Positions 1 to 18,682 of a stretch of 64,000 nucleotides of DNA are shown in pieces. Position 1 is the stretch's first letter; every line of letters begins with the position of its first letter. The position numbers and the translations under genes were made by a program. Under the pieces are notes generated by a model that worked only from the letters and a program-made list of their open reading frames with translations, was not told where the DNA came from and did not search any database. This DNA is from Sedimentisphaerales bacterium. GTDB taxonomy: Bacteria > Planctomycetota > Phycisphaerae > Sedimentisphaerales > Anaerobacaceae. The stretch covers positions 4,896,001 through 4,960,000 of the forward strand of contig OY970194.1 of the NCBI GenBank assembly GCA_963708075.1, read 5' to 3'.

Positions 1-1
1 C

Positions 2-1261
2 CGCGGCGGCGAGGGCTACCGTCACGGTGCGGCGGCGGACGAATTTGACGACCCGCTCGACCGTTCCGGCGCGTTTGGCGACGATCACCCGTCCTTCGAG
101 ATAGCGGCGCAAATCCTCGGCGAATTCGCCGGCACTGCTGTAGCGTCGGCTCGCGTCCTTTTCCATCGCCTTGCAGCAGATGGTTTCCAGATCGGCGGGA
201 ATTCGCGGGCTGATCTGCCGCGGGGGACGCGGGTCCCGGTTGAGAATCTGGCCGATCACCTGTTGCTGGGTGTCGCCGTCGAACGGCGGCTCGAGGGTCA
301 GAAGCTCGTAGAGCGTCACGCCGAGCGAGTACACGTCGCAGCGGTGATCCACCTTGTCGTGTCCGCCGGCGATTTGCTCGGGGCTCATGTACCGGGGCGT
401 GCCGAGGAACGAGCCGGTGAGGGTCACCCCACGCTCCTTGCAGATCCGGGCGATTCCGAAGTCCAGCAGGACGAGCCGGCCGTCGCTGGCCAGCATGAGA
501 TTCGACGGCTTGACGTCGCGATGGACGATCCCCTCGGCATGCGCGTAGTGCAACGCATCGGCGACCCCGCTGACCAGCCGCGCCACTGTGCTGAAATACT
601 CGCCCTCCGATTTGCAGTCCCGCAGCACGCACGGTACAGGGGATCTGCTGCCTGTCTCGTCGTCCGCCGGGGCTTTGGAATCACCTGCGGCCGGAGCGGC
701 GGGCGGAGCGGATTCAGCCGATCGGGCCTCACGCAGCTCTGCGATGACCTCGTCGAGGCTCTGCCCGTCAATCATCTCCATGGCGAAGTAGCAGACGTTG
801 CTCTCAGCGCCCTCGGCATAGATGGTGACGATGTGCGGATGGTGGAGCGTGGCAGCGGCCCGGGCCTCTCGATGGAATCGCTCGACCGCCGAAGCGCCTC
901 CGGCCAGACCGATGGGCAGCACCTTCAGCGCGACCCGGCGGTTGAGAGAGACCTGCACCGCCTGATAGACCACGCTCATCCCGCCGGAGCCCAGCCGCCT
1001 CTCCAGCCGGAAGTCGCCGATCTGCAGATTCGGCTCCAGGCCGACGACCGGGATATCCGCCCCGGCCATACTCTCCCGGGCGGGCGTCGCGGTCGGAGCT
1101 TCGGGGGCACAGTCCGGCTCCAGGCCCGCCCGCAACCGGCTTACGGCCGTCGCGCAGCGATCGCACACACGCAGATGGCGTTTCCAGCCCGCCAATTCCT
1201 CCGCCGAGGCCGTGGCCTCGACGAACGCCGCCATATCTCGCTGTGATAGACAACCCTTCAC
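2..1261 (-). CDS. Hanks-type Ser/Thr protein kinase with N-terminal zf-HC2-like zinc finger (3' end runs off the window)
   Basis: Manual minus-strand translation from GTG at 1261 (not in the ORF track): MKGCLS...HLRVCDRC...LGSGGMSVVY...VALK...HRDVKPSN...DFG...GTPRYMSPEQ...DVYSLG. Confidence 0.9.
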   Translation of the reverse strand, partial: MKGCLSQRDMAAFVEATASAEELAGWKRHLRVCDRCATAVSRLRAGLEPDCAPEAPTATPARESMAGADIPVVGLEPNLQIGDFRLERRLGSGGMSVVYQAVQVSLNRRVALKVLPIGLAGGASAVERFHREARAAATLHHPHIVTIYAEGAESNVCYFAMEMIDGQSLDEVIAELREARSAESAPPAAPAAGDSKAPADDETGSRSPVPCVLRDCKSEGEYFSTVARLVSGVADALHYAHAEGIVHRDVKPSNLMLASDGRLVLLDFGIARICKERGVTLTGSFLGTPRYMSPEQIAGGHDKVDHRCDVYSLGVTLYELLTLEPPFDGDTQQQVIGQILNRDPRPPRQISPRIPADLETICCKAMEKDASRRYSSAGEFAEDLRRYLEGRVIVAKRAGTVERVVKFVRRRTVTVALAAA

Positions 1262-1412
1262 GGCGTCACGGCTCCCATCAATATGTCCAGGATTTCCACC
1301 GTTATTGTACCCGATGGCACAATTCAGAGCAAGCCGCTGGTAGTCCTGGGGGGACGATTTTACAGTGCGTGTTCGCCAAACCCGCTGTGTTCGTCCAAAG
1401 TTCCTGAACTCC

Positions 1413-1492
1413 GGGTGGCAGCGTCAAGCGCAGCTTGGCGATGGTCCGTCCACTCGCCATCGCCAAGGCCTTCGGCCTTGACGCTGCCACCC
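1413..1492. repeat. Palindromic REP-like element, family A (GGGTGGCAGCG...CGCTGCCACCC)
   Basis: Long imperfect hairpin. Related copies at ~2709-2770 (partial), 35986-36074, 44607-44695, 45659-45747 and 63881-63974. Confidence 0.9.
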
Positions 1493-1671
1493 TCTGCGCA
1501 GTTCACACAGGCCTGAATCGCAAGAACGTGGGACAAAGCCAACCCATCGCGCGGTGATGGAATCGGGCGGGTCTGGACGCGTGGGGTCGGTGCGGGTATG
1601 ATGGGTAAAGTTGTGTAGAGTGGTTCCTTGATTCGCAGAGCAAGCTGGGTTCATCGGGTCCGAGGTGGAGC

Positions 1672-2676
1672 ATGTCGAAGCAACTGGATCGTCGCGAGTT
1701 TCTGAAAACATCGCTGGCCGGCTCGGCCGTCGGGGCACTGGGCCTGAGCTTCGAACAGCGGGCCCTGTTGGCGCAGACCGGGAAGCCGCCGGCCGCCGCA
1801 GCATCAGAGGGCTCGACGGGGGCCATGCCGGTGGGCCGGCTGGGCAAGCTCAAGGTGACAAGACTGATCGTCGGGGGCAACCTGACCAGCGGGTTCGCGC
1901 ATAGCCGCGACCTCATCTACGTGTCCGGCCTGTTGAGACAGTACTTCACCGATGAAAAAGTGTTCGAGACCTGGGAGCTCTGCGAGCAGTGCGGCATCAA
2001 TACGGCGATCCTGCGGCTCGATGACCACGTGATCGGACTGGTCACCAAGTACTGGCACGAGCGCGGCGGCAAGTTCCAGTGGATCGTCCAGGTCAAGCCA
2101 CCCAAATTGGACATCGGTAGTTTCAAGACCGACATTCAGAAGTGCGTGGATAACGGGGCCGTCGGGGCGTACATGCAGGGCGGCGTCGGCGATGGGCTCG
2201 TGAAGGACGGCCAGATGGACGTGCTCGGTGAGGCGCTGCAATGCATCAAGGACGCCGGACTCGTCGGCGGCATCGGCGCACACGACCTGCAGGTCCCCAT
2301 CGCCTGCGAAAAGGCCGGCCTCCAGCCGGACTTCTACATGAAGACCCTGCACAGTCCCAGCTACTGGTCCTTCAATCCGCGCAAGGAGAACTGGGATAAG
2401 TTCCACGTCGGAGGCAAAACCGACCGCGACAACGTCTGGTGCACCCAGCCGACGGAAACGGTCGAATTCATGAAGACCGTCAAGAAGCCCTGGATTGCTT
2501 TCAAGGTCCTGGCCGCCGGCGCCATCCACCCGAAGGACGGCTTCAAATACGCCTTCGAGAACGGCGCCGACTTCATCTGCGCCGGCATGTTCGACTTCCA
2601 GGTCCGCGAGGACGCCATCATCGCCAGGGACATCCTCAAAGGCACCATCCCCCGCCAACGCCCCTGGTGCGCATAA
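1672..2676 (+). CDS. Tat-exported aldo/keto-reductase-like TIM-barrel protein
   Basis: Twin-arginine LDRREFLK signal; MPVGRLGKLKVTRLIVGGN and IAFKVLAAG segments resemble AKR-like proteins; GGAG RBS. Confidence 0.65.
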   Translation: MSKQLDRREFLKTSLAGSAVGALGLSFEQRALLAQTGKPPAAAASEGSTGAMPVGRLGKLKVTRLIVGGNLTSGFAHSRDLIYVSGLLRQYFTDEKVFETWELCEQCGINTAILRLDDHVIGLVTKYWHERGGKFQWIVQVKPPKLDIGSFKTDIQKCVDNGAVGAYMQGGVGDGLVKDGQMDVLGEALQCIKDAGLVGGIGAHDLQVPIACEKAGLQPDFYMKTLHSPSYWSFNPRKENWDKFHVGGKTDRDNVWCTQPTETVEFMKTVKKPWIAFKVLAAGAIHPKDGFKYAFENGADFICAGMFDFQVREDAIIARDILKGTIPRQRPWCA

Positions 2677-2968
2677 GAAAACTCGAAGCACGAATATCGA
2701 AATCCGACGGGTGGCAGCGGCAAGCGGAGCCTGCGGAGTTTGCCGATGGTATTGCCGGTTATCGCCAAGTGCCATGCTTATGCTTGCATAGGCGTGTCTT
2801 GTCGACGGGGTTGGGCAGGTCGCGTATCCTGTTGTCTGCTTCTGGCACTGCGGTTGGTAGTTAAGATGTGACCGCGGTCTTCTTCGCACGGAGTATGGTC
2901 GCAGCATGGGGGAGCCCAGACGTGGACGGCTACCTGTGAAGGACCATCATGGCCGGTGACTGTCACCG

Positions 2969-3286
2969 TCAGCCTTGATGGGCGGCAATGTAGAGACGAA
3001 TGGCCTCGTATGCCAGTTCCTGGATCTTCTTGACGAGGAGATTCGCTTCCTTGTCCTGGCTCCTCGGGGCCTCGCTGGCTGCCATCGTGAGAAGGCCGGC
3101 GTGTACGCCGAAAACCGAGGCCAACTCGTTGAGACTCTCCAATCCGATGCCGCGCTTTCCGTTCTCCAGCAGGCTGAGGTAGTTCACCGTCAAGCCGGTC
3201 CTTTCGGCCACGTTCTGCTGAGTCATTCCCAAATCCAGTCGAATTTGGCGTATGGCCTCACCGAGTTTTGATTTCGATATATTCAT
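2969..3286 (-). CDS. XRE-family helix-turn-helix transcriptional regulator
   Basis: LGEAIRQIRLDLGMTQQNVAERTGLTVNYLSLLENGKR HTH_3 pattern. Confidence 0.9.
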   Translation of the reverse strand: MNISKSKLGEAIRQIRLDLGMTQQNVAERTGLTVNYLSLLENGKRGIGLESLNELASVFGVHAGLLTMAASEAPRSQDKEANLLVKKIQELAYEAIRLYIAAHQG

Positions 3287-3332
3287 GCAACCACAACCAT
3301 TCAGAAAAAGGCAGGGTGAACATACTCTCATC

Positions 3333-3602
3333 CTACCCACTGCGGATGTTTCGCCAAATGCTGTAAGCTTTTTTCAGAACACCAAATACCACTTTGAGAA
3401 AATCAGGGGAGTCCACGAGGTTGGATAATTCTCGCCTTATTCGTTCGAGTTCCTCGACAGCATCATTGATGTCGTTTCTTATCGTTTGCGGGATCCCAGG
3501 TCTGGCCTTCAGGTGTAGCAGCAGCGCTCGTATATCATCCAGTTGCTGCTGAAACCTCCTAACCTTGGATTGTCTGTTCTCGCCTCTCCGAGATGCGTCC
3601 AT
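3333..3602 (-). CDS. Hypothetical 89-aa helical protein
   Basis: Strong RBS GAAAGGAG before ATG 3602; co-oriented with the XRE gene; no family recognised. Confidence 0.65.
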   Translation of the reverse strand: MDASRRGENRQSKVRRFQQQLDDIRALLLHLKARPGIPQTIRNDINDAVEELERIRRELSNLVDSPDFLKVVFGVLKKAYSIWRNIRSG

Positions 3603-4196
3603 AACAGCACTCCTTTCGTACAACGCCTCAGCATTTGATCGAAGTGTCCGTAATGGAGATCAAGCCTGTCCACCCCTGCCTATGGGTTCAATGTGGACTT
3701 ATCCATATTCACCTATCCCATAGAGACTGCCCTCCTTTCTCATGATCGAAACCTTGGTAACCGAGGGAGATACGTGAACCAATGGCCATGGATCAGACTA
3801 CACTCATGGAAACTGCCCTCCTTTCTGCTGTCAGACTACCGTGGCATAGCACGAGTTCAGTGCTTCATCTTCACTTCCTTTCGTAACTAACCCTCGCCCC
3901 AAGATGGCCGACATGGCCAAAGGGGCTAAACCTGTTCTTTCGGCTCGGCAACACACCGATGCCGCATACACCTGCGGGCAACACACTCATACCCCGGTTG
4001 CGCCGGGTCGCCCGCTGTCGCCCGGCACAAGGCGGCACATAGGTGCCAACTCACGGCTACGTGACACTGCACCTCCTTTCGATCGAGTCGTGCCCTCGCG
4101 ATGGTAAGGCGGCACATCACGCAAGGCAGGCTCCGTTCCTGTGACATAGTGAGGCAGCATCTCGGTTCTTTTAAAACCCCTGATTCCGGTATTCGG

Positions 4197-4208
4197 TTTT
4201 CAAAGAAC
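4197..4208 (-). promoter_or_regulatory. boxA-like antitermination element GTTCTTTGAAAA
   Basis: Matches the rrn-type boxA consensus and lies ~10-20 nt downstream of the predicted transcription start. Confidence 0.55.
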
Positions 4209-4225
4209 ACCCTTCATGATGGAGG

Positions 4226-4254
4226 ATAGTACAGGCACATTGACTTAAAGTCAA
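4226..4254 (-). promoter_or_regulatory. Sigma70-type promoter overlapped by a palindromic operator
   Basis: TTGACT-17 nt-TACTAT on the minus strand; perfect palindrome TTGACTT-A-AAGTCAA at 4240-4254 covers the -35 box. Confidence 0.75.
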
Positions 4255-4561
4255 ACATAAAATCGAAAAAAAAAGAAAAATTTCTTTCGACCCTTCTTCC
4301 CCGCCGCCCGGTCAGTGGCTTTCCTTCTGCTCGCCAGCAGTATACCCGACGCATATGACCGCCGTCAAGGTTCCCGGCAGCCAACTGCGTGGACTGGATA
4401 GATGTGGTACGGCTGGAATGAGGGGGGTGGCTGGTGGGTTTGGTGAGCTGAGCGAGGGACGAGACAAATGCAGCGAAGACACGATGCGTTCCGGGTTCTG
4501 CAAAAGACAAGCCCTGCGAGCGATGCTTGCAAGCTTCGGGAATATCAGGATGTGTGTGCTA

Positions 4562-4650
4562 TTACAGGGTTGCGCGTTTTCGCAGCCAGGTGGCCGCGCC
4601 AGTACCGATGCCCGCCAGAAGCAGGGCACCCGGAGCAGAGACAACCGCAA
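4562..4650 (-). pseudogene. Orphan remnant of a VPAPG/PEP-CTERM-like sorting signal
   Basis: VVSAPGALLLAGIGTGAATWLRKRATL-stop with no plausible upstream domain; joined to a duplicated gene end. Confidence 0.6.
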
Positions 4651-4740
4651 CGCCATCATCGCCAGGGACATCCTCAAAGGCAACGTCCCTGGTACTCGTA
4701 GCTCCTGGCAAAAACTCGAAGCACGAACATCGAAATCCGA
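4650..4740 (+). repeat. Direct-repeat copy of the 3' end and downstream flank of the 1672-2676 gene
   Basis: 4650-4682 is identical to 2612-2644 (33 bp); 4711-4740 matches 2678-2707 with one mismatch. Confidence 0.9.
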
Positions 4741-4835
4741 AACAAATGCGAAATGACGGAAACGCTATCGCAGCACGATGCCTGCGTTTCAGATTTCGCT
4801 GCAGTGAGACCGATTGTGGATTTCGAGCTACCCTG

Positions 4836-7800
4836 CTATGGCGATTCGATCCGTTTGAGTTCGCCAAGATACAACAACTGGCCTGTTCGGGGATCAACCT
4901 CTCCGATGGCAATGATGTCCGTATGGAAGCCGCGAATCCTCATGTTCGTGATCGCGTGGCCCCCAGTATCGAATGCCGCAGGCAGCACGATGCCCAAATC
5001 GGCGTCTTTGCCGGAGAAATTCAGAGGAACATAAGGATAGCGCGTGTCGATGTTCCAGCAAATTGCCGCATCGGCATAATGCCCGTGAAGAATGTTCACG
5101 TCCTGAACCTCGTACAACAGAACTTTGAAGTCTATCCGTATCGGCGGCTGCATCCCGTCCATCCTGACCAAGTAGTATGGGCTCACATCAACTCGCATCC
5201 CATCGGTGAGCGGCCCGAAAGACCACTTGCCGGGGTAGATGGCCAAGTCCGGGTCCAAGGAAAGACGATAGTCACCGATAGCGACTAGGCCGGTAGTGAC
5301 ACCATCGTTGTACGCCATTTCATTCCAAAACCGTCCATTGGAGAAGGACGTATTTGTCATCTCCGTGACCATCAAGCTGGTGCCATCATCATAGTTCACT
5401 GTCATCGCCCCGGCGACCTCGCTGATCCATTGGCCCTCCGGCCCATGGGTCCACTGAAACGTCCTCTTTCCATAGTCCGCCAGAACCACATAGTCGGGAT
5501 AGAACACGGTCTTGACCGGCGGCTTTGAATCCTCGCACTCGATCTGCTCCCATCGCAATCGCGGATAGTCCCGGCCCTCGCAGATCGTCCAAATATCCTC
5601 CGTCCCGTTGGCGGTCTCATCCACGAAGTCCCAGCCGGCGTCGAGGAAGGTCCTGGCGGTTTGCACCTCGGCAGTCGTCTTGCCGTAGCTATCATCACAG
5701 CCTATGGCCTCAGGATCCGGCTCTCCGAACATCTCTGCCAGGCCGCTGACCTGGCGATCCCAGAAGTAAGATTCGAACACACTCCCGGGAGCTCCGACGA
5801 ACCCGCCCACTCTGCCTCCGCCCGAGACACGACCGGCAAAATAACAGCGGGAGACCGCGCCGGTGAAAAGCGTGGGGGCATCCGGGTTGTAGGCGTACTG
5901 GAGCACCCTGTAGTCGATTCCTATAAGTCCGCCCACGTAGTCGCCGCCGGTGATCGTGCTGGTCGAGTAGCTGTTCGTCATGTTGCCCGCCCAGTTCGCA
6001 CCGACCAGGCCGCCGACATTGTTCGCATCCCCCGAGATGCTGCTGCGCGAACAGCAGTTGCTGATGGTGGCGCCGATCCAGTGCCTCCCTACCAGGCCAC
6101 CGACGTTGTTTGCGTCGCCCGTGACTTTGCCGGCGGAACTGCACTCCGTGATCGCCCCTTCGTTGGCTCCCGCCAGGCCGCCGACATCTTCGCTGCCATT
6201 GACCGCTCCGTCACTATGGGACCGCGTCATCGCATCCGAATTCACTCCCACCATGCCGCCGACATACGTCTCCCCACTCACGGAGCCGGCATTATAGCAG
6301 TTGTCGATCACATCGGAGTTGCTCCCAATCAGCCCACCGACTTGAGACAGACCGTTGACCAGACCCGCATTGTAGCAGTCAACCACGGCACCGGGACTGG
6401 AAGGCCGATCCCACTCGTCGCGACTGTTTCCTGCCAGCCCACCCACCGACTGTCCGCCATCGACCGTGCCGTTGTTGCCGCAGTGCGTCACATGTCCGCA
6501 GAAGTTGTCCCCGATCAGCCCGCCAACATTCTCGGCGCCGTAAACCGTGGCAGCGTTACGGCAAGAGTCCAGCGAGCCGCCGTTGGAGCCAACCAAGCCG
6601 CCGACAGACCTCTGACCGCTGACCAGGTTGGCGCTGTCGCAGCGGGTCACACGAGCTGCGTTATACCCCAGCAGCCCTCCGACCTGCTCCGTCCCGGTCA
6701 CGACGCTCGTGCTCCGGCAATCCGCCACGTCGCCCGAACCGTGATGGCCGATCAGCCCCCCGACAGACCACGCGCCCTTGATCGTGCCGGTGCTGTAGCA
6801 CCGGGCCGCCTCCCCATCCGTGAACCCTGCCAATCCGCCGACATGTTCCTCTGTGCCGGTGATGTTCGCGTCCACGATGCGCAAGTCCCTGACCTTGGCG
6901 CCGAGCACCACCTGGCCGAACAGCCCCAGATGTCCTCCGCCGGTGACGGTCAGATGGGAGATCGTCAGACCCGCGCCATCGAATGTGCCGGCAAAAGAAG
7001 GGATCACCGGTACCGCCCAGCGGGTTCCCGAGAGATCAATGGGAGCATCCAGCCGATAGTGCGCGCAGGGGCCGTAGTGGACCACAGCCCCCAATTCACC
7101 GGCGTCGGATACGAGATAAGGATCTTCCGCCGTGCCCCGGCCCGACAATTGGGGCGGAGTGTATCCGCCGAACATCGACAGGACTGGATGGCCGCCTCCC
7201 TCCGGCATCTGCCAGACCTCGGACGTTCCGTTGGTGGTTTCACCGACCCAGTCCCACCCTGCGGCGAGATAGGTCTGCTTGTCATGCATTGGGTTCGCAG
7301 CCGCGGCTGCAGTCCCCAGGAACCTGCGTCTGGCTGGCCCGCCAACGTTCGATGACTCCCCGAAACAGCCAATCACAGTCCCCCAGCCGGAGGTTACCGA
7401 TCCCCCGGCAGGCTTGCCGGCGATGGTGACCGGGCCACTACTGTAGCAATGAGTCATAACCCCCCAGTTCTCCCCCAGCAGTGCCCCCGCACTGCTCTTG
7501 CCATCCACGGCGGCGGTACTGTAGCACTGGGTCACAGTGCCCCAGGAACCGTTGTTTCCCACCAGCCCGCCGACACTCTCGTTACCCTTGAGCGAGCCGG
7601 TCGTATAACAATGGATGATGGCGCCGCCATTGCCCGCCGTCAGCGCACCGACACGCCAATCCGTACCAGCGACGTTGACGTCTGTCACTGCCAAGTCCCT
7701 GACCTCAGCCCCATGAGCCACCCGGCCGAACAGTCCCAGGTATCCGTCACCTGCGATGGTCAGGTGCGAGATCGCCCGGCCATCGCCATCGAACACGCCG

Positions 7801-9026
7801 GCAAACGAAGGGATCACCGCCGTGCCCCAGCGGATGCCGGACAGGTCGATCGATGCCGCCAGCCGGTAATGGGCGTACGATCTGTAGTTATGCATCGCCC
7901 CTAACTCCGATGCGTTGCTGATCAAGTAGGGTTTGTCAGGTGAGCCTTCGCCCTGCAGCCGGGGTGGGGTGTAGCCCTGGAAGAACGCCAGCACCGGATA
8001 GCCCCCTGCCGCCGGCATCTGCCAGACTTCGCACGTCCCATCCTCCGCTCGACCGGCCCAATCCCAGCCGGCATCCAGATACGTCTGCATGTTCTGCATC
8101 TGGGCCGTGGTCAGGCCCCTGCCGGCGCTCTGTGCGCTCGGGGCTTGTCCTGAAGTCTCGACATCCCAGAAGCTCCCGTTCACGCCGGCATCAGCGCGGC
8201 TGAATCCCGCCAGCCCGCCGGCGTAACTTGTGCCACCCCGGACCACGCTGATGCTGTAGCAGTGAGTCACAGCCCCCAGGTTGTTACCTACCAGCCCGCC
8301 AGCGTACGATCCACGGCCGTGAACTGCGCCGCTGCTGTAGCAGAAGGCTACCATACCTTCGTCATTCCCCCCTACCAGCCCGCCGGTGCTCGCTCCAATG
8401 CCATCGCCATCGACGGTAGCGCCACTATAACAGCCGGTCACCTGGCCCAAATTGTACCCCACAAGCCCGCCAACAGAGTTGCCTTTGCCACTGACGACGC
8501 CGGTGCTGTAGCAGTGGATGATCGAGCCGCCGTTCGATCCGGCCAGTGCACCCACGGACCACGCGTCACCGACCTTCACTACGGCATGGATCAGGCCCAG
8601 ATTGCGAATCTCGCCCCGTGGCCCGCCGACATATCCGAAGAGCCCTGCATAGGGATACTGGTCGATGGCGGTGAGAGTGAAGTTGGCAATCGTATGTCCA
8701 TTCCCGTCGAAGACGCCTGTGAAAAGGTCCTGCGGAGGACCGGCTCTGTCCGAGTTGGTCTCCAGGGCAATGATCTGAAACGCCGGCCGGCCCTCGCTGC
8801 CGTCGTAGGCGGAGAGATCGACGTCGGCCATGAGCTTGAAGTGCTTGTCCCAGTCGTTGGGCTCGGCGCCGATGGCATTCATCTGCTCAGCCGTCCAGAT
8901 TTGATAGGGCTCGTCCGCCGTGCCGCTGCCCCCGCCATACTTCCCTTGGGCTGAAACGGTCATGCAACAGAGCACGATCAGTGCAAGGATTGTTCGCGGG
9001 CTTCGTCGTTCTCTTATGGAGAGCAT
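4836..9026 (-). CDS. Large secreted GLUG-motif repeat protein
   Basis: Signal peptide; three GxGT..DPYxI modules with many VGGLVGxN (GLUG) repeats and FLDAGWDF motifs; unrelated C-terminal domain; GGAGG RBS before ATG 9026. Confidence 0.9.
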   Translation of the reverse strand: MLSIRERRSPRTILALIVLCCMTVSAQGKYGGGSGTADEPYQIWTAEQMNAIGAEPNDWDKHFKLMADVDLSAYDGSEGRPAFQIIALETNSDRAGPPQDLFTGVFDGNGHTIANFTLTAIDQYPYAGLFGYVGGPRGEIRNLGLIHAVVKVGDAWSVGALAGSNGGSIIHCYSTGVVSGKGNSVGGLVGYNLGQVTGCYSGATVDGDGIGASTGGLVGGNDEGMVAFCYSSGAVHGRGSYAGGLVGNNLGAVTHCYSISVVRGGTSYAGGLAGFSRADAGVNGSFWDVETSGQAPSAQSAGRGLTTAQMQNMQTYLDAGWDWAGRAEDGTCEVWQMPAAGGYPVLAFFQGYTPPRLQGEGSPDKPYLISNASELGAMHNYRSYAHYRLAASIDLSGIRWGTAVIPSFAGVFDGDGRAISHLTIAGDGYLGLFGRVAHGAEVRDLAVTDVNVAGTDWRVGALTAGNGGAIIHCYTTGSLKGNESVGGLVGNNGSWGTVTQCYSTAAVDGKSSAGALLGENWGVMTHCYSSGPVTIAGKPAGGSVTSGWGTVIGCFGESSNVGGPARRRFLGTAAAAANPMHDKQTYLAAGWDWVGETTNGTSEVWQMPEGGGHPVLSMFGGYTPPQLSGRGTAEDPYLVSDAGELGAVVHYGPCAHYRLDAPIDLSGTRWAVPVIPSFAGTFDGAGLTISHLTVTGGGHLGLFGQVVLGAKVRDLRIVDANITGTEEHVGGLAGFTDGEAARCYSTGTIKGAWSVGGLIGHHGSGDVADCRSTSVVTGTEQVGGLLGYNAARVTRCDSANLVSGQRSVGGLVGSNGGSLDSCRNAATVYGAENVGGLIGDNFCGHVTHCGNNGTVDGGQSVGGLAGNSRDEWDRPSSPGAVVDCYNAGLVNGLSQVGGLIGSNSDVIDNCYNAGSVSGETYVGGMVGVNSDAMTRSHSDGAVNGSEDVGGLAGANEGAITECSSAGKVTGDANNVGGLVGRHWIGATISNCCSRSSISGDANNVGGLVGANWAGNMTNSYSTSTITGGDYVGGLIGIDYRVLQYAYNPDAPTLFTGAVSRCYFAGRVSGGGRVGGFVGAPGSVFESYFWDRQVSGLAEMFGEPDPEAIGCDDSYGKTTAEVQTARTFLDAGWDFVDETANGTEDIWTICEGRDYPRLRWEQIECEDSKPPVKTVFYPDYVVLADYGKRTFQWTHGPEGQWISEVAGAMTVNYDDGTSLMVTEMTNTSFSNGRFWNEMAYNDGVTTGLVAIGDYRLSLDPDLAIYPGKWSFGPLTDGMRVDVSPYYLVRMDGMQPPIRIDFKVLLYEVQDVNILHGHYADAAICWNIDTRYPYVPLNFSGKDADLGIVLPAAFDTGGHAITNMRIRGFHTDIIAIGEVDPRTGQLLYLGELKRIESP

Positions 9027-9139
9027 GTCTCTTCCTCCGCTCCGATTCCGGGCCATGCATTCACGGCCCATCTTCTCCTGTTTTCACGCACGCACCGCCT
9101 CCATCCGGCAGAATGTTACCTCCTGGTCTCCAAGCCTAC

Positions 9140-9250
9140 AGTATATCAGACACAGACCATGGCAGTCAATTTAAGACTCCCGCAGGTACAGCCACACAGT
9201 CTCGCCGGCATGGGTTGGCGTTTGTCAATTGCGAGTCCGTCCGCTATACT
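9140..9250. promoter_or_regulatory. Divergent sigma70-like promoters
   Basis: Minus: TTGACT-18-TATACT (9140-9169). Plus: TTGTCA-17-TATACT (9222-9250). Confidence 0.55.
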
Positions 9251-9306
9251 GGGTGGAACCGACCGGTGTGGCAGCAGAGAATACCGGATATTGAGAAGGG
9301 GGAACT

Positions 9307-9921
9307 ATGAGCGCACGGAGGATTTTGGCGGCGGCGCTTGTGGCCGTGGCGCTGTGCCCTTCGGCGTATGCCCAGAAGGTCGAGTTCACGCCTTTCTACG
9401 GCTATGCGTTCAGCGGAGAACTGACGGACGCCAATACCGGCCAGGAGTTCGAGATCGACGAGTCCGCCTGCTACGGCGGGATGCTCGACTTGCCTCTGAG
9501 TGACACAGAGCTATTGGGGTTCTTCTACAGCCGGCAGGAGACTGAGTTGAAATCAGACGACAGCCTGTTCGGCAAGCGGACCCTCTTCGATCTCGATGTG
9601 GACTACTACCACCTCGGCGGCACCCTCATCATTCCGAATCCGCCCTGGGAGCCGTTCGTGACCGGCACGCTCGGCGTCACTCATCTCAGTCCCGATGCCT
9701 CGGGCACGGACTCGGTCACGCGGTTCTCGCTCGGTCTCGGCGGCGGCGTGCGATACTTCCCCACCGAGCATCTGGGTCTGTACCTGGGTGTCCGGGGCTT
9801 CCTGACGTTCATGGAGGGCGATACGCTCTTTCGAAGCGAGTCCGGGGCCGCCACGGTCGTGGTTGATGCCGACGGCCTCTGGCAAGTCCAACTCCAGGCC
9901 GGCCTGGTCTTCGCCTTCTAA
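9307..9921 (+). CDS. Outer-membrane beta-barrel protein (OmpW/OmpA-like 8-strand)
   Basis: Signal peptide (AYA cleavage), alternating beta pattern, GLGGGVRYF, C-terminal Phe. Confidence 0.8.
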   Translation: MSARRILAAALVAVALCPSAYAQKVEFTPFYGYAFSGELTDANTGQEFEIDESACYGGMLDLPLSDTELLGFFYSRQETELKSDDSLFGKRTLFDLDVDYYHLGGTLIIPNPPWEPFVTGTLGVTHLSPDASGTDSVTRFSLGLGGGVRYFPTEHLGLYLGVRGFLTFMEGDTLFRSESGAATVVVDADGLWQVQLQAGLVFAF

Positions 9922-10008
9922 CCGAGCCAGGGGGCAGTCACACGTGATACACTCTCTGTGTCGAGCGTGGAGACTTGGCAAAGGACTACTTGGTTGGAGG
10001 ACAAGAAG

Positions 10009-10374
10009 ATGAGATCTTATCATGCCTTGATCACCATCGTGGTGTTGCTTCTTACCCCATTTGCGAGCGCCGACATTACTGGCTGGAACTGCGATGATGA
10101 CGGTGATGGCGCTATCGTGATGAATACGCCTACATGGACCGCAGTTCCTGGTGAGGAGGGCCAGTACCAGTACTTCCTGACTATGAGCGGAACTCAGTAC
10201 TCGTATCCGGCCCATGTGGAAGGAGATTTCGCCACGGGCGATCAGGACTTGAAAGTCCTGCCGGCCCACCCGGGACTGGGGACGAGACAGTACAGGGGTA
10301 AGATCGACGGGGGTTGGGGGATGAGGAATTGGGAGAGCCGCGAACGCCATCGACTGTCCTCAGGCGGCTCATAG
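10009..10374 (+). pseudogene. Secreted protein, probably 3'-truncated
   Basis: GGAGG RBS, signal peptide (ASA) and an acidic beta-rich N-terminal part; composition becomes non-coding-like after ~10250. Confidence 0.4.
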
Positions 10375-10436
10375 TCCACTTTGTTCCGTATGATTAGCTG
10401 GGCCGTTCGGCCACAAATGGGTCACATGCCAATAAG

Positions 10437-10463
10437 AAGGGCCGAGTTTCTGACTCGGCCCTT
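10437..10463 (-). terminator. Intrinsic terminator-like hairpin
   Basis: AAGGGCCGAG-7 nt-CTCGGCCCTT, followed on the minus strand by a T-rich stretch; downstream of the 10504-11109 gene. Confidence 0.6.
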
Positions 10464-10503
10464 GTGCATGCATGGTTTCATCGGCGGTTTTCGCCGGGAC
10501 GGA

Positions 10504-11109
10504 TTACGACTGCTTGCGTCTCAGCCGCAAGCCCGTGCAACCCAGGCCGATGGCAGCGAGAAGAGCCGCACCGGGAACGGGGACCACGTGCGCTGTGCCC
10601 TCGAAACTCACCTCGTGGAAGATGGCATACTGCCGGGCGATGATTTCAGAGTGATTGGTGGTTATCTCAAGGTCTACCGTCTGCACGTTCGAGGCTGCGA
10701 ACGCGAAAGTCTGCAGGCTTTCGACGTCCGTGGCGCTGCCGGTGAATGAGCCGACGACTGCGGCGAGCGGATCATAGAACGTCAGCGTGAAGTCTTTGAT
10801 GCCCTCGCCATCGTTGCCGATGCCGCCGCCATTGTTCCACAGATTGAAGCCCGTCAGGTCGTATGCAGCGCCCAGATCGAACGTCACGTTGTACGGCCCC
10901 GCCCATGTGCCTCCCCCGTCATATCCGAGGGCCAGCCACGGAACGGCGGCAGTCGATCCGTCGATCACGCTGGCGGCAGACGACCCGTATGCGATTGGAT
11001 CCGCGGTCGTGGCAGTGATGGGTGTCAGGGACGCCATCGCCGCACCCTGAGTCAAACCGATGACCAGCAGAACGCCTGCTGCCAACATGGTGATACCATT
11101 AGCTCTCAT
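10504..11109 (-). CDS. PEP-CTERM-like (VPVPG) sorted surface protein with discoidin-like domain
   Basis: AAGGAGGAGG RBS; signal peptide; TFDLGAAYDLTGFNLWN; C-terminal VPVPGAALLAAIGLG...RLRRK. Confidence 0.85.
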   Translation of the reverse strand: MRANGITMLAAGVLLVIGLTQGAAMASLTPITATTADPIAYGSSAASVIDGSTAAVPWLALGYDGGGTWAGPYNVTFDLGAAYDLTGFNLWNNGGGIGNDGEGIKDFTLTFYDPLAAVVGSFTGSATDVESLQTFAFAASNVQTVDLEITTNHSEIIARQYAIFHEVSFEGTAHVVPVPGAALLAAIGLGCTGLRLRRKQS

Positions 11110-11180
11110 AGCCTCCTCCTTCACCTCTAAGAACGCCACACAGGGCGCGATCCACCATCGCTCCTGCAAGCAATCAGGTC

Positions 11181-11210
11181 ATTATACGACGGTTGTCCCG
11201 AAACCGTCAA
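11181..11210 (-). promoter_or_regulatory. Sigma70-like promoter with overlapping inverted repeat
   Basis: TTGACG-18-TATAAT; GACGGTT-N7-AACCGTC at 11188-11208. Confidence 0.55.
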
Positions 11211-11355
11211 TGGCAAACTGGGCAAGATAGATAGAATTGGCAAAATTCTTGAATGAGACGGCGGGCAGTATCCACGCCCTTCTTATCGGGGGCTTGAATT
11301 GTCCCTGAGAATGGGGCGAAACTGCGTCTTTCAGCCAAGGAATGCGGGTAGTGCC

Positions 11356-11475
11356 TCAGCCATAGTCGGCCTGTGTTGCCCTTACTGACTGTCGGATTGC
11401 CATCCTGATTCCGTCCGGCCGGGATGGCCAGGCGTGGATCGGGGCCGCGAGGTCGGGATCAATTTCGCCTCTGGA
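11356..11475 (-). pseudogene. Remnant of the small DPDLA...AWPxLP ORF seen at planctomycete integrative-element ends
   Basis: IDPDLAAPIHAWPSRPDGIRMAIRQSVRA next to a tRNA fragment; family recognised from memory. Confidence 0.45.
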
Positions 11476-11565
11476 AGACAAGCAGGGGACAAGCTGAGAG
11501 CAGCAGGGGGTAGTATGCATCGGCCGTGTGTTCGTAAGTGCTTGATTTTGCAGGGCTTGCGGACT

Positions 11566-11617
11566 TGGCCCAGTGGGATTTGAACCTGTGACCAAGGGAT
11601 TATGAGTCCCCTGCTCT
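11566..11617 (-). pseudogene. Degenerate 3' part of a tRNA with CAT anticodon (Ile2/Met type), att-site-like
   Basis: AGAGCAGGGGACTCATAATCCCTTGGTCACAGGTTCAAATCCCACTGGGCCA: anticodon arm and TTC loop present, T stem mismatched, no 5' acceptor strand, no CCA tail. Confidence 0.7.
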
Positions 11618-11720
11618 CCCACCGATAGACTTCCGGTTTAGGAAACCGATGCTCTCAATGCCGGGGACGAACCCCACCTGTTTGGGCCGACCGCCACCGG
11701 TTGCGCAGAGCCGCGAATGG

Positions 11721-12542
11721 TCACTGCTTCTTTTGTCCGCCGAGGAGGTCTTGGAGGCCTTCGGTGACGGACTTGCCGAGGTCGCCGGTGCGGTTGGGGT
11801 CACCGGTTTGGGGCGAGCCGAAGATCATCCGGCTGATGTCGATGGCTTTGTCGAGGATGCCCGTGATCTCGCCGACGGTTTCCTTGGGCAGGATGCCGCC
11901 GCCCTGTTCGGCAATGCCGGCGGCGACGGCCAGGATGATCTTGCTGATCAGCACGGCGGTGTCCATCCTCTCGTCGCGGCCGAGGTCGGTCATCATGATG
12001 TTGCCCAGGGTGAACTGGGCGGTCTGCGGCTTGCCGGGGACGCCGGACAGGCTCGCGTGCACCGTGATGTTCGAGATCTCCAGGGTGTCGATCAGCAGCC
12101 GCTTGCCGGTGGGTGCCCGCGGCTCGCGCAGAGGCTTGATGACTTCGTACAGGTTGTTCTGAAGCCCTTGCTGCTCGACGAACACCTCCATGTTCGCCAA
12201 TTGCATGTCCGTGATGTGCACCTCATTGGTCAGGAGCGAGCCGGCGTCGGCCGTGACGTTCACTCGTTCGAGCGTCAGCAGCGCGGGGCCCTGAAAGCCC
12301 GCGGGGTTTGCCACGGTGATCTTCTGCAGGCCCACGGCCCCTCGCAGAATCGCGACGTCCGCCTTGCCGACCCCCACAGGGACGTTGAGCGTTTTCGTGC
12401 CGGCCTCTTCCACCGCCGTCTGCACGATCTTGTCGGCAAACAGCGCCACCGCCACGACGCCCACGATCGCCAGCACTACCAGAACAACGATGATGAACAG
12501 AACCGCCTTCAGCAGCTTCCGCAGCTTTCGTGTCTTCCTCAT
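11721..12542 (-). CDS. AsmA/DUF748-like N-anchored envelope protein
   Basis: N-terminal TM helix; LNVPVGVG...ITVANPAGFQ motif. Confidence 0.7.
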   Translation of the reverse strand: MRKTRKLRKLLKAVLFIIVVLVVLAIVGVVAVALFADKIVQTAVEEAGTKTLNVPVGVGKADVAILRGAVGLQKITVANPAGFQGPALLTLERVNVTADAGSLLTNEVHITDMQLANMEVFVEQQGLQNNLYEVIKPLREPRAPTGKRLLIDTLEISNITVHASLSGVPGKPQTAQFTLGNIMMTDLGRDERMDTAVLISKIILAVAAGIAEQGGGILPKETVGEITGILDKAIDISRMIFGSPQTGDPNRTGDLGKSVTEGLQDLLGGQKKQ

Positions 12543-16813: not shown

Positions 16814-17821
16814 CTAACGGTCGAGATTCGAGGCCGCGGGCTCCCCTAGTCTTGGATCAAATAGGACCAATTGCTGTGAGCCCTGTTCGATCTTTTTCGG
16901 CGGCCCATGCTCAGCATTATCAAAGTGTCCGCCCAGAGAGTCAAAGCGAAATTTGCTTGCCTCCAAATACTCTTTCTGTGTCTCGAAGGCTAGCCATCTC
17001 CTGTGCGCCTGTTCGGCGACTGCTCCGGTGGTGTTACTTCCGGCGAATGGATCGAGTATCAAATCGCCTTCATTCGTAAGGAAGTCGATGAAGAACCGAG
17101 GCAGTTGCGGAGGGAATCGGGCTGGGTGCGGCTTGATCCCCGCTCGATTGCAGGCCTGTAGATAATAGCCATTGCTATCGTTGTTGCCGAATTCCAGCAG
17201 GTTCGGCGGGATAGAGCCACCCAGGTCCTTACCAAATTTGTCGGTGATGTTATGACCCGAAGGACGCCTCTTAGCTTTGTAGCCCCGTTCTATGAGGCGG
17301 AGCATGTCTTTGCTGTATTCACGCAGAACCCTCCGATTGTCCGCCTTTGGAAATGGGCTTTTTGACAACCACCACACGCACTCAACAGAGTCCTTGATTC
17401 TGATCTTTCGCACTGTGACCCACTCGGCAGGAGAAGGCAATTTGGCGGGATTGTACCAATAGAACTCCTGTGCAAGGTGGAATCCCAATTCATCACACAA
17501 CGCTATCAGAAGCTTGAAGTGGTAGAGAGAACGGGTCGGCTGGCCCTCGTTGTAGCTGCCCCCTATATCGATGACAAGACTCCCATCGGGTGCAAGTACC
17601 CGGTGGAAGTGGCGTGCGAATTCGAGGAACCACGGGACATACTCATGCTTCTCTACATTGCCATATTCCTTCTTGAAGTGAAGTGCGTATGGTGGGGATG
17701 TTACGATGAGGTTAACTGAATCATCGGGTAAATCCCTCACCAGGTCCCGCGCATCCCCTAAGTATGCAACGCCGAGATCTGTTGCATAAAAGGGTTTCCT
17801 TTTGATGAACTCTGCTATCAT
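16814..17821 (-). CDS. Beta-class N4-cytosine DNA methyltransferase, M.PvuII-like
   Basis: TSPPY catalytic motif precedes [42 protein letters not shown] and HPARFP segments closely resemble M.PvuII as recalled. Confidence 0.93.
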
Positions 17822-17880
17822 GCCATATCAGTCCTAACTTACAGGCACATCATAGCATGAGTTCATCCGGGAGACAAGAA

Positions 17881-18480
17881 TCATGGTTTTGCAGAATCCA
17901 CGATTTCGAATACTTCCAGCAAGTCGCTACGCCACGGCGGTGCGGCGGGCTGACAAATAGGATGCATTACCTCCAGCCGGTCTGGTTGTTTGCGGTGGCG
18001 CGCCAAGTCTCTTGCAGGGGCGTAGAGATATTCCCAAGCCCCTTTCTGGTTGAAGAGGCAAGCGGCGACCACGTCAAATTCGTCCGGGCGGTACAAGCGT
18101 GTCTTCTCCCCAGTTTTGGAGTCGACGCCGCCTCGTGTCTTTTGCAGTTCCACCCTGAACGACCCTGTTTCCGCACCCTTGCAGCGTTGCCGACCACTCC
18201 TCACGTTCTTGCACTGTATGGTCAGTTGCTGAGCTTTGTAGCAAAGGAAGAAATCCGGTTCCTTGTCTTTGTCGCTCCACCGCAACTCCGATATGACACC
18301 TTGCTTCTGCAGCCCCTGCAATGCCCGAAACAGGTAGAGCTCGGCAAGTTTCCCTCTGACATCAACCTGCGCACGGAAGCCACTGCTAATCGCGTCAAGG
18401 ATGTCCCTTGCCGATGCGTTGAGGCTCCTCTCCAGGGGATGCTCAATACTATTTCTTTGTCCTTGAATTTCCGAGGCCAC
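17881..18480 (-). CDS. Putative type II restriction endonuclease (PD-(D/E)xK fold)
   Basis: Lies between C and M genes; GKLAE...EPDF...IQCKN motif; GTG start with AAGGA RBS overlapping the C gene. Confidence 0.7.
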   Translation of the reverse strand: MASEIQGQRNSIEHPLERSLNASARDILDAISSGFRAQVDVRGKLAELYLFRALQGLQKQGVISELRWSDKDKEPDFFLCYKAQQLTIQCKNVRSGRQRCKGAETGSFRVELQKTRGGVDSKTGEKTRLYRPDEFDVVAACLFNQKGAWEYLYAPARDLARHRKQPDRLEVMHPICQPAAPPWRSDLLEVFEIVDSAKP

Positions 18481-18682
18481 GAAACAGTTCCTTGATGTCC
18501 ACATCCAATGCACGGGCCAAGTCCGCAACTACCTGTAACGTGATGTTCCTCTCACCCCGCTCAATGCCGCCAATGTACGTCCAGTGACGCCCGGCAGCTT
18601 CCGCAAGCTGCTCTTGAGTCCAGCCCCGTTTCTTGCGCAGGTCGCGCACGCGCGACCCGAATTGTTCCTGAATCGTTCCCAT
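18449..18682 (-). CDS. Restriction-modification controller (C) protein, XRE HTH
   Basis: FGSRVRDLRKKRGWTQEQLAEAAGRHWTYIGGIERGERN, typical of C proteins; overlaps the REase start. Confidence 0.9.
   Translation of the reverse strand: MGTIQEQFGSRVRDLRKKRGWTQEQLAEAAGRHWTYIGGIERGERNITLQVVADLARALDVDIKELFRGLGNSRTKK

Follow-up and report, generated by a model that had tools for sequence, protein, structure and literature searches.

What is a leader of about 600 nt, carrying five Shine-Dalgarno (SD) words, doing ahead of two small genes of a Sedimentisphaerales bacterium? A first-pass annotation of the window (the whole stretch of 64,000 nt that was analysed) had described an operator-controlled, boxA-containing leader with an array of minigenes, located upstream of an orphan gene and an XRE regulator. 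The cassette comprises the following elements:

4240..4254, no strand: operator palindrome TTGACT-N3-AGTCAA, with 6-bp arms and a 3-nt centre, overlapping the -35 element
4226..4254, minus strand: sigma70-type promoter TTGACT-17-TACTAT (TTGACT 4254-4249, TACTAT 4231-4226), 9/12 consensus positions
4197..4208, minus strand: boxA-like GTTCTTTGAAAA, judged by homologues and the rRNA leader, forming the 5' side of a 14-bp hairpin with 4165-4178
3333..3602, minus strand: 89-aa three-helix protein with an amphipathic C-terminal helix, candidate toxin, with its own SD (SD5) at 3617
2969..3286, minus strand: 105-aa XRE (HTH_3) protein, candidate repressor and antitoxin (Pfam HTH_3, E 1.6e-13)

The promoter was found on the minus strand at the place given earlier, and the palindrome over its -35 element is perfect; it reads TTGACTTTAAGTCAA on the minus strand, the string first reported being that of the plus strand. 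The boxA-like word at 4208-4197 pairs with 4178-4165 in a hairpin, also as claimed. The promoter pattern alone is at chance level (2 found versus 1.6 expected), the palindrome occurs once in the 7.5-Mb genome, and a boxA-like word stands behind 1/468 promoter-like sites genome-wide, in a search whose pattern was fitted with the window site in view. The genome's own rRNA leader carries boxA-like GATCTTTGACAA. Compared with the gamma-proteobacterial consensus GYTCTTTAANA, as it appears in the accessible text of PMC5725501, the window boxA has one mismatch, and the rRNA leader also has a G there. NusB and Rho are both encoded in the genome. A second promoter-like site, TTGACG-18-TATACT (window 4339-4368, minus strand), lies ca. 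115 nt upstream of the first. A search of viral sequences with the operator-plus-boxA pattern returned 31 stretches; neither gene lay within 2 kb of any of them, and they were taken as chance matches.

Three intact loci are available: the window, L065 (another genus) and L084 (another family); the cassette of L075 is the same sequence as that of L065 and was counted once. L065 and L084 have the order promoter, palindrome, boxA, leader, small gene, XRE gene, and in 3/3 intact loci an operator over the -35 element, boxA and a long leader travel with the two genes, which upholds that part of the first-pass annotation. Promoters TTGAAC-18-TATAAT (L065) and TTGACT-17-TATTAT (L084) stand at the same place ahead of boxA-like words (L065:1276-1287 and L084:1091-1101), which lie 16-25 nt behind the -10 element. 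The palindrome arms are identical in L084 (1040-1054) and degenerate in L065, and the hairpin partner of boxA was not seen in either leader. The leaders are 232 or 420 nt long, and each contains one strong SD, before an ORF of 8 or 14 codons, the peptides being unrelated. Comparison with L065 and L084 thus makes operator, boxA and long leader the conserved features; the five-SD array is not. L084 has a terminator-like hairpin directly 3' of the XRE gene. At L013 both genes are intact and a repeat element takes the place of the leader, so the leader is dispensable there for tolerating the small gene; L014 is truncated and, of the two genes, L083 has only that for XRE. Altogether, both genes occur together in four loci (window, L013, L065, L084) and the operator in three, with different neighbour genes at every locus.

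Within the window leader, the units that make up the array are:

4072..4081, minus strand: SD1, GAAAGGAGG, heading a 26-codon GTG ORF (4067-3987)
3866..4044, minus strand: apparent stray copy of a pseudoknotted leader module (by similarity and covariation), including SD2 (3882)
3857..3868, minus strand: MKH-stop, at the position of a pilin start codon in the module alignment
3793..3826, minus strand: SD3 with MSVV-stop, apparent duplicate of the SD4 unit
3713..3740, minus strand: SD4 with MG-stop

All of the sequence features on which the array had been based are present: GAAAGGA words on the minus strand at 4080, 3882, 3825, 3739 and 3617, the last being the SD of the 89-aa gene; the minigenes MKH-stop (3868-3857), MSVV-stop (3807-3793) and MG-stop (3721-3713); the 15-mer shared by 3826-3812 and 3740-3726; and three short internal repeats of two copies each. 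A 94-codon ORF is also present across 4210-3926. These words had suggested a decoy, that is, a structured RNA titrating CsrA or ribosomes through its many SD/GGA words. In keeping with this, five GAAAGGA in 470 nt are the genome's sole run of at least four among 920 such words (7.5 Mb), AGAAAGGAGG is an exact 10-nt complement of the 3' end of the organism's own 16S rRNA, CsrA is encoded in the genome, and boxA is typical of untranslated RNAs. The window RNA also resembles CsrB/RsmY-type decoys in having several GGA words, but unlike them it has only five, each followed by a start codon, mostly paired in prediction (unpaired 0.04-0.61) rather than in loops, not conserved, and without an Rfam match. 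The array is missing from both homologous leaders, its peptides are not conserved, and SD2 appears to be a pilin ribosome-binding site (RBS) by descent, normally heading a pilin-like gene. The decoy thus lacks support, and we rate it as very unlikely. The folding energy of the whole leader is not above shuffles (z -1.1), and SD3 is predicted to pair with its own spacer in a small hairpin.

The origin of SD2 was revealed by similarity within the genome. Window positions 3984-3866 match the leader of a secreted-protein gene of the same genome (81% over 120 nt, E 2.7e-22), whose last SD starts a 152-aa pilin-like protein. A covariance model of the module, built with the window copy, so that the window's own score is circular, matched 24/24 genus genomes and 18/151 order genomes. 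A pilin-like gene lay within 650 nt in 51/56 module matches, according to a secreted-protein profile built from 19 of the 56 examined loci, a few near-duplicates among them; of the remaining five, one is the window, two are at contig ends, one belongs to a different secreted protein and one is weak. The profile found no match in window 2400-4900 (best E 1.2). The first-pass annotation had named SD motifs that head full-length genes elsewhere as evidence against its reading, and this is what was found for SD2. The window copy has kept a 10-bp first stem in its own register, 7/8 pseudoknot pairs, and 7/10 and 9/9 pairs of the two hairpins. Judging from the module matches, and from an upstream SD at -212 in L044, SD2 is by its sequence part of a captured pilin leader whose gene is gone, and SD1 probably belongs to it as well: SD1 lies at -214 from the module end, compared with -212 in L044 and about -325 usually. 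SD1 can be aligned in two ways, to the only SD-minigene of L065 and to the SD that pilin leaders carry upstream; an anti-SD-like 12-mer stands on either side of it (4117-4106 and 4040-4029). Since window 4044-3866 reads as a stray pilin leader, MKH-stop occupies the usual pilin start site and would be the dead start of the missing gene.

The SD3/MSVV unit has no counterpart in L065 or L084, and its likeness to SD4 indicates that the two are one duplicated unit. Other alignments bearing on the origin of MKH, SD3 and SD4 were compared with 300 shuffles each. For alignment with pilin starts, 37 and 158 shuffles were as good; with the true small-gene start, 84; with the pilin trailer, 31; and with the duplicated gene start of L013, none, a result driven by shared SD words. 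The L013 duplication itself (L013:507-566) is an in-frame 60-nt repeat of the start of the small gene with its SD, and demonstrates that SD-plus-start units can duplicate at that locus. On this sequence comparison, the five SDs were put together locally from different pieces, one of them a leader RNA borrowed from a pilin gene.

The pilin leader is a well-supported structured RNA in an understudied phylum, a matter separate from that of the toxin. In 32 sequences, 86% of cells were paired and 23/41 pairs showed two-sided change, which was reached in 0/500 shuffles, with slid controls at 31-44%; the structure was read from the same 32 sequences, and kin among them are not independent. It consists of a long stem, a loop pairing downstream (pseudoknot) and then two hairpins, and its folding energy is not above shuffles (z -1.25). 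Modelling covers the 3' 185 nt of ca. 430 nt. The full leader (L002:1230-1620, G000 C1 about 6046785-6047175, with ca. 50 loci among L004-L074) has the order conserved 5' block, hairpin, perfect anti-16S SD with an ORF of 2-4 codons, middle block, pseudoknot module; the conserved middle block may pair with the 5' block. Leaving out the window, a contig end, a duplicate and a weak match, 46/52 leaders have their own strong SD far upstream, ca. 325 nt from the start (short variant at -212 in L044), and in 32/52 it is followed by an ORF of 1-6 codons, versus 5/77 such SDs genome-wide; the ORF is mostly M-T-stop or M-T-x-stop. Rfam gave no relevant match at E up to 1 for window 1-12000 and 10 loci. 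Among the openly accessible papers searched, no match was found for a Phycisphaerae RNA motif or riboswitch or a Planctomycetes pilin cis-regulatory RNA. The leader is apparently an undescribed cis-element and, by its sequence features, a candidate riboswitch. In fold searches, the pilin-like protein came closest to pilins of the chaperone-usher type, namely CfaB and the PapG pilin domain (E 1.3e-3 to 3e-3, short of threshold). At L002, two secreted subunit-like genes and a chaperone-like gene (677-1157, 1618-2076 and from 2715), for which no Pfam or NCBIfam match was found, probably form a chaperone-usher-like pilus operon. Two more pilin paralogues are present in the same genome, L018 and L019 (G000 C1 7386512-7386694 and 5882908-5883088, respectively), and L019 retains only the 3' half of the module.

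The 89-aa gene proved not to be an orphan: two close and 20 distant full-length relatives were found (the latter from 25 matches, leaving out the query, one partial and three long coiled-coil matches). The family alignment has 23 rows, with ca. 22 intact relatives at 28-75% identity. The gene is rare (2/276 family genomes and 2/401 class genomes, its own genome counted each time), and its profile matched only itself in 251 order and 24 genus genomes. Locus scans with P0001 in metagenomes, plasmids and phages, with P0007 in genomes and with P0013 in viral contigs were empty, as was an XRE scan of plasmids; L015 and L076-L080 were dropped as unrelated matches. The predicted model has three helices (mean pLDDT 80), and the last helix is amphipathic in 23/23 members (hydrophobic moment 0.50-0.78), although small bundles often have such a helix. 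No family of Pfam, NCBIfam or PADLOC scored over cut-off, none of the 23 members matched the retron SP models at E up to 10, and Foldseek gave no match at E 0.001; a VIA fold search (best Z 10.9, generic bundles) and the Atlas (best 0.86) were uninformative. By analogy with the small toxins discussed below, the protein is a candidate toxin.

N-termini in the family are basic and variable and, in the window, boxA is followed by a hairpin. The two could be the antiterminator and nut site of a circuit like that of phage lambda N, a reading we find hardly credible. Lambda N is largely disordered, whereas the small-protein family is a conserved folded bundle; moreover, no boxB-like hairpin is common to the three loci, and nothing long lies downstream for read-through.

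In addition to the conserved features upstream, the small gene of the window is enclosed by an inverted repeat:

3668..3681, minus strand: 5' arm, pairing with 3321-3309
3309..3321, minus strand: 3' arm, between the two genes

Each pair of the window arms has a predicted pairing probability of 0.5-1.0. In 3/3 intact loci, a stretch of 12-15 nt located 50-70 nt before the small gene pairs just after its stop, with energies of -29.2 (window), -34.7 and -26.5 kcal/mol that were matched by 2, 0 and 9 of 500 shuffles, respectively, the regions compared having been picked after the repeat had been seen. When the whole leader and whole spacer were used, the corresponding figures were 14, 0 and 85 of 300 shuffles. 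The arm sequences are locus-specific: pairs from the same locus reach -26.5 to -34.7 kcal/mol, versus -14.9 to -22.8 kcal/mol for cross-locus pairs. The 3' arm motif is seen in L065 and L083 as well, L013 is without both arms together with the leader, and one of the L065 folds has the 3' arm in a local hairpin. The RBS of the small gene is buried in the leader-only fold (0.04), but full-length folds of all three loci leave it half or fully open.

The best PADLOC model for the window XRE protein is HTH_VI (E 2.2e-17), which we take to be the HTH protein of type VI retrons, followed by Control_protein (E 6.2e-9). HTH_VI is the top model for 3/3 XRE proteins (E 1e-17 to 1e-18), ca. eight orders of magnitude ahead; the model has no cut-off, and may simply be the nearest XRE model. 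Six of 16 XRE relatives are on contigs exactly as long as those bearing small-gene relatives, which indirectly supports pairing of the two genes there. According to the accessible part of one report, type VI retrons have the order ncRNA-SP-HTH and a hybrid RNA whose 3' end anneals back, the small protein (SP) is a toxin, deletion of the non-coding region or mutation of the HTH is toxic, and RT catalysis is dispensable for neutralising the toxin (10.1101/2025.10.22.683967). A second report, likewise from its accessible part, describes SP-HTH alone as a working toxin-immunity pair and SP toxins as proteins of 2-3 helices, the last of them amphipathic, that are hardly conserved in sequence, down to 1.9% identity between known SPs (10.64898/2026.04.27.721009).

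The window module resembles type VI retrons (Retron-Vpa2, Retron-Sen3) in the order of long RNA, small helical protein and HTH (shared with L065 and L084), in an RNA whose predicted fold encloses the small gene in 3/3 intact loci, in the best PADLOC match of its XRE protein (HTH_VI) and in the amphipathic last helix of its small protein. It differs in having no RT, no SP-model match and no msr-msd shown, and in having boxA and a C-box-like operator; the available Sen3 text mentions neither boxA, Nus nor a palindrome. No RT was found near the locus with Pfam RVT_1 (G000, G372, G268 and G599; G372 is 86% complete and its contig extends more than 60 kb beyond), in ORF lists (L118, L119) or by eye (L013). 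The module is therefore not a member of the type VI retrons, but may work like their core. Among the openly accessible main texts searched, no match was found for a retron with boxA and antitermination; the supplements of the two retron preprints may list RT-less SP-HTH pairs. We tentatively favour, at a confidence just short of probable, a toxin-antitoxin module that is autorepressed, Nus-protected and without RT, and that functions in the manner of the ncRNA-SP-HTH core of a type VI retron. The earlier guess of a toxin module with an RNA part is thus retained as the best reading, minus the orphan status of the gene.

The same resemblance could mark the remnant of a type VI retron that has lost its RT and is decaying, its patchwork leader being debris. 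Such decay would fit the HTH_VI match, the chimeric window leader, the partial L013, L014 and L083 loci and a flanking repeat that is 20% diverged; yet three independent RT-less loci keep operator, boxA, repeat arms and open frames, the small protein has its many intact relatives, and the genome is without a retron-type RT, its sole RT lying 3.7 Mb away. We regard a decaying remnant as improbable. That sole RT (L122:1096-2670, G000 C1 near 1191250-1192820; 524 aa) adjoins an rRNA operon. It lacks both NAxxH and VTG, presumably the motifs of retron RTs, and is possibly a defence-associated RT.

A non-toxic regulatory operon has also to be taken seriously, though we think it unlikely. Here, a C-protein-like XRE and a small helical co-repressor or anti-repressor would control themselves and island cargo, with boxA and leader tuning the timing. 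The operator holds one GACT-N3-AGTC C-box-like unit over the -35 element (pattern from the accessible text of PMC2175313), as with the controller (C) proteins of restriction-modification (R-M) systems, which are also small XRE proteins; Control_protein is the second PADLOC model, C.BclI is among the relatives of solved structure, the L118 promoter is back to back with a PDC-S06/AAA_13 gene, and L013 tolerates both genes without the leader. Unlike R-M controller systems, the window has a single C-box unit rather than two, and XRE is the last gene; no methylase or nuclease lies beside any locus, and the neighbours vary from locus to locus. Because the palindrome is single in the genome, XRE has no regulon.

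Under the favoured toxin-antitoxin reading, the module would be small and horizontally moved. Its two small co-occurring genes, with an operator in the promoter, recall type II toxin-antitoxin systems of toxin-first, HigBA-like order. XRE, whose binding to 4240-4254 we infer from sequence, would repress its own operon; NusB/E would load at boxA and let the long untranslated leader escape Rho; and the transcript would form a single hybrid RNA folded back across the small gene. XRE and the leader would restrain the 89-aa toxin, which would be freed when XRE supply or the fold fails, upon phage infection or loss of the element. One SD-short ORF would be ancestral, the pilin-leader module captured without its gene, and SD3/SD4 duplicated; the extra SDs, if they do anything, would probably act in cis by keeping the RNA covered with ribosomes and so stabilising it. 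If the small protein is toxic, the module would be a free-standing type VI retron core, showing the origin or fate of retron VI effectors, and a minimal system for restraint by hybrid RNA and HTH without msDNA. If true, the reading adds a boxA-dependent, non-rRNA, non-CRISPR leader outside Proteobacteria. A bolder version, rather improbable in our judgement, is an RT-free retron-like ribo-toxin class in Phycisphaerae, in which Nus and fold-back RNA replace msDNA control, and whose window copy has been rewired by a captured, possibly ligand-sensing pilin leader, toxin output then being set by a surface-attachment signal together with serial minigenes that load ribosomes.

Parts of this scheme have precedents. 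STAB-SD is an SD-only mRNA stabiliser. In the available texts, minigenes can stabilise a toxin mRNA in cis (axe-txe; PMC8708949), and an SD-bound ribosome blocks RNase J1 in Bacillus (hbs; PMC5737220). As in these cases, an SD and an ORF of 2-4 codons lie upstream of a gene and plausibly stabilise its mRNA in cis; unlike them, the SD units here form part of a pseudoknotted leader. A search of the genome (93% complete) gave no RNase J, so the Bacillus-type 5' exonuclease block is inapplicable, and the classic STAB-SD mechanism was rejected. The ParE-like CKO_00699 of C. koseri is a boxA/Nus-regulated toxin-antitoxin gene, according to the accessible text of PMC5725501. The window shares with it a candidate toxin gene whose leader carries boxA. 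In that text, boxA is repressive and at most 50 nt from the start, whereas here the two are 210-600 nt apart, as would suit antitermination; the fold of the small protein also differs from that toxin.

The cassette lies in a 2-kb insert of lower GC content (46-59% versus ca. 60% for the genome), with a direct repeat on either side:

2612..2707, plus strand: left copy, ca. 95 nt, at the 3' end of gene 1672-2676 (80% over 96 nt)
4650..4740, plus strand: right copy, ca. 95 nt

Near-identical pieces are present in three DNA sequencing runs of one study. No tRNA gene was found in the window; an apparent fragment of a tRNA 3' end and, after it, a short ORF such as occurs where integrated elements end are located at 11356-11622 (minus strand), and a similar tRNA-like fragment and ORF lie 1.1 kb before the L065 cassette. 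An integrase neighbours the cassette in L119. The gene back to back with the cassette promoter in L118 (2854-5238, minus strand; AAA_13/PDC-S06) is an RloC-like defence candidate. Short intergenic repeats at window 2708-2790 and 4700-4750 recur many times, both elsewhere in the genome and on related contigs from metagenomes. Elsewhere in the window, minus-strand genes encode a 1411-aa GLUG-repeat secreted protein (4836-9071) and a probable DNA methylase and its neighbour (16817-18528).
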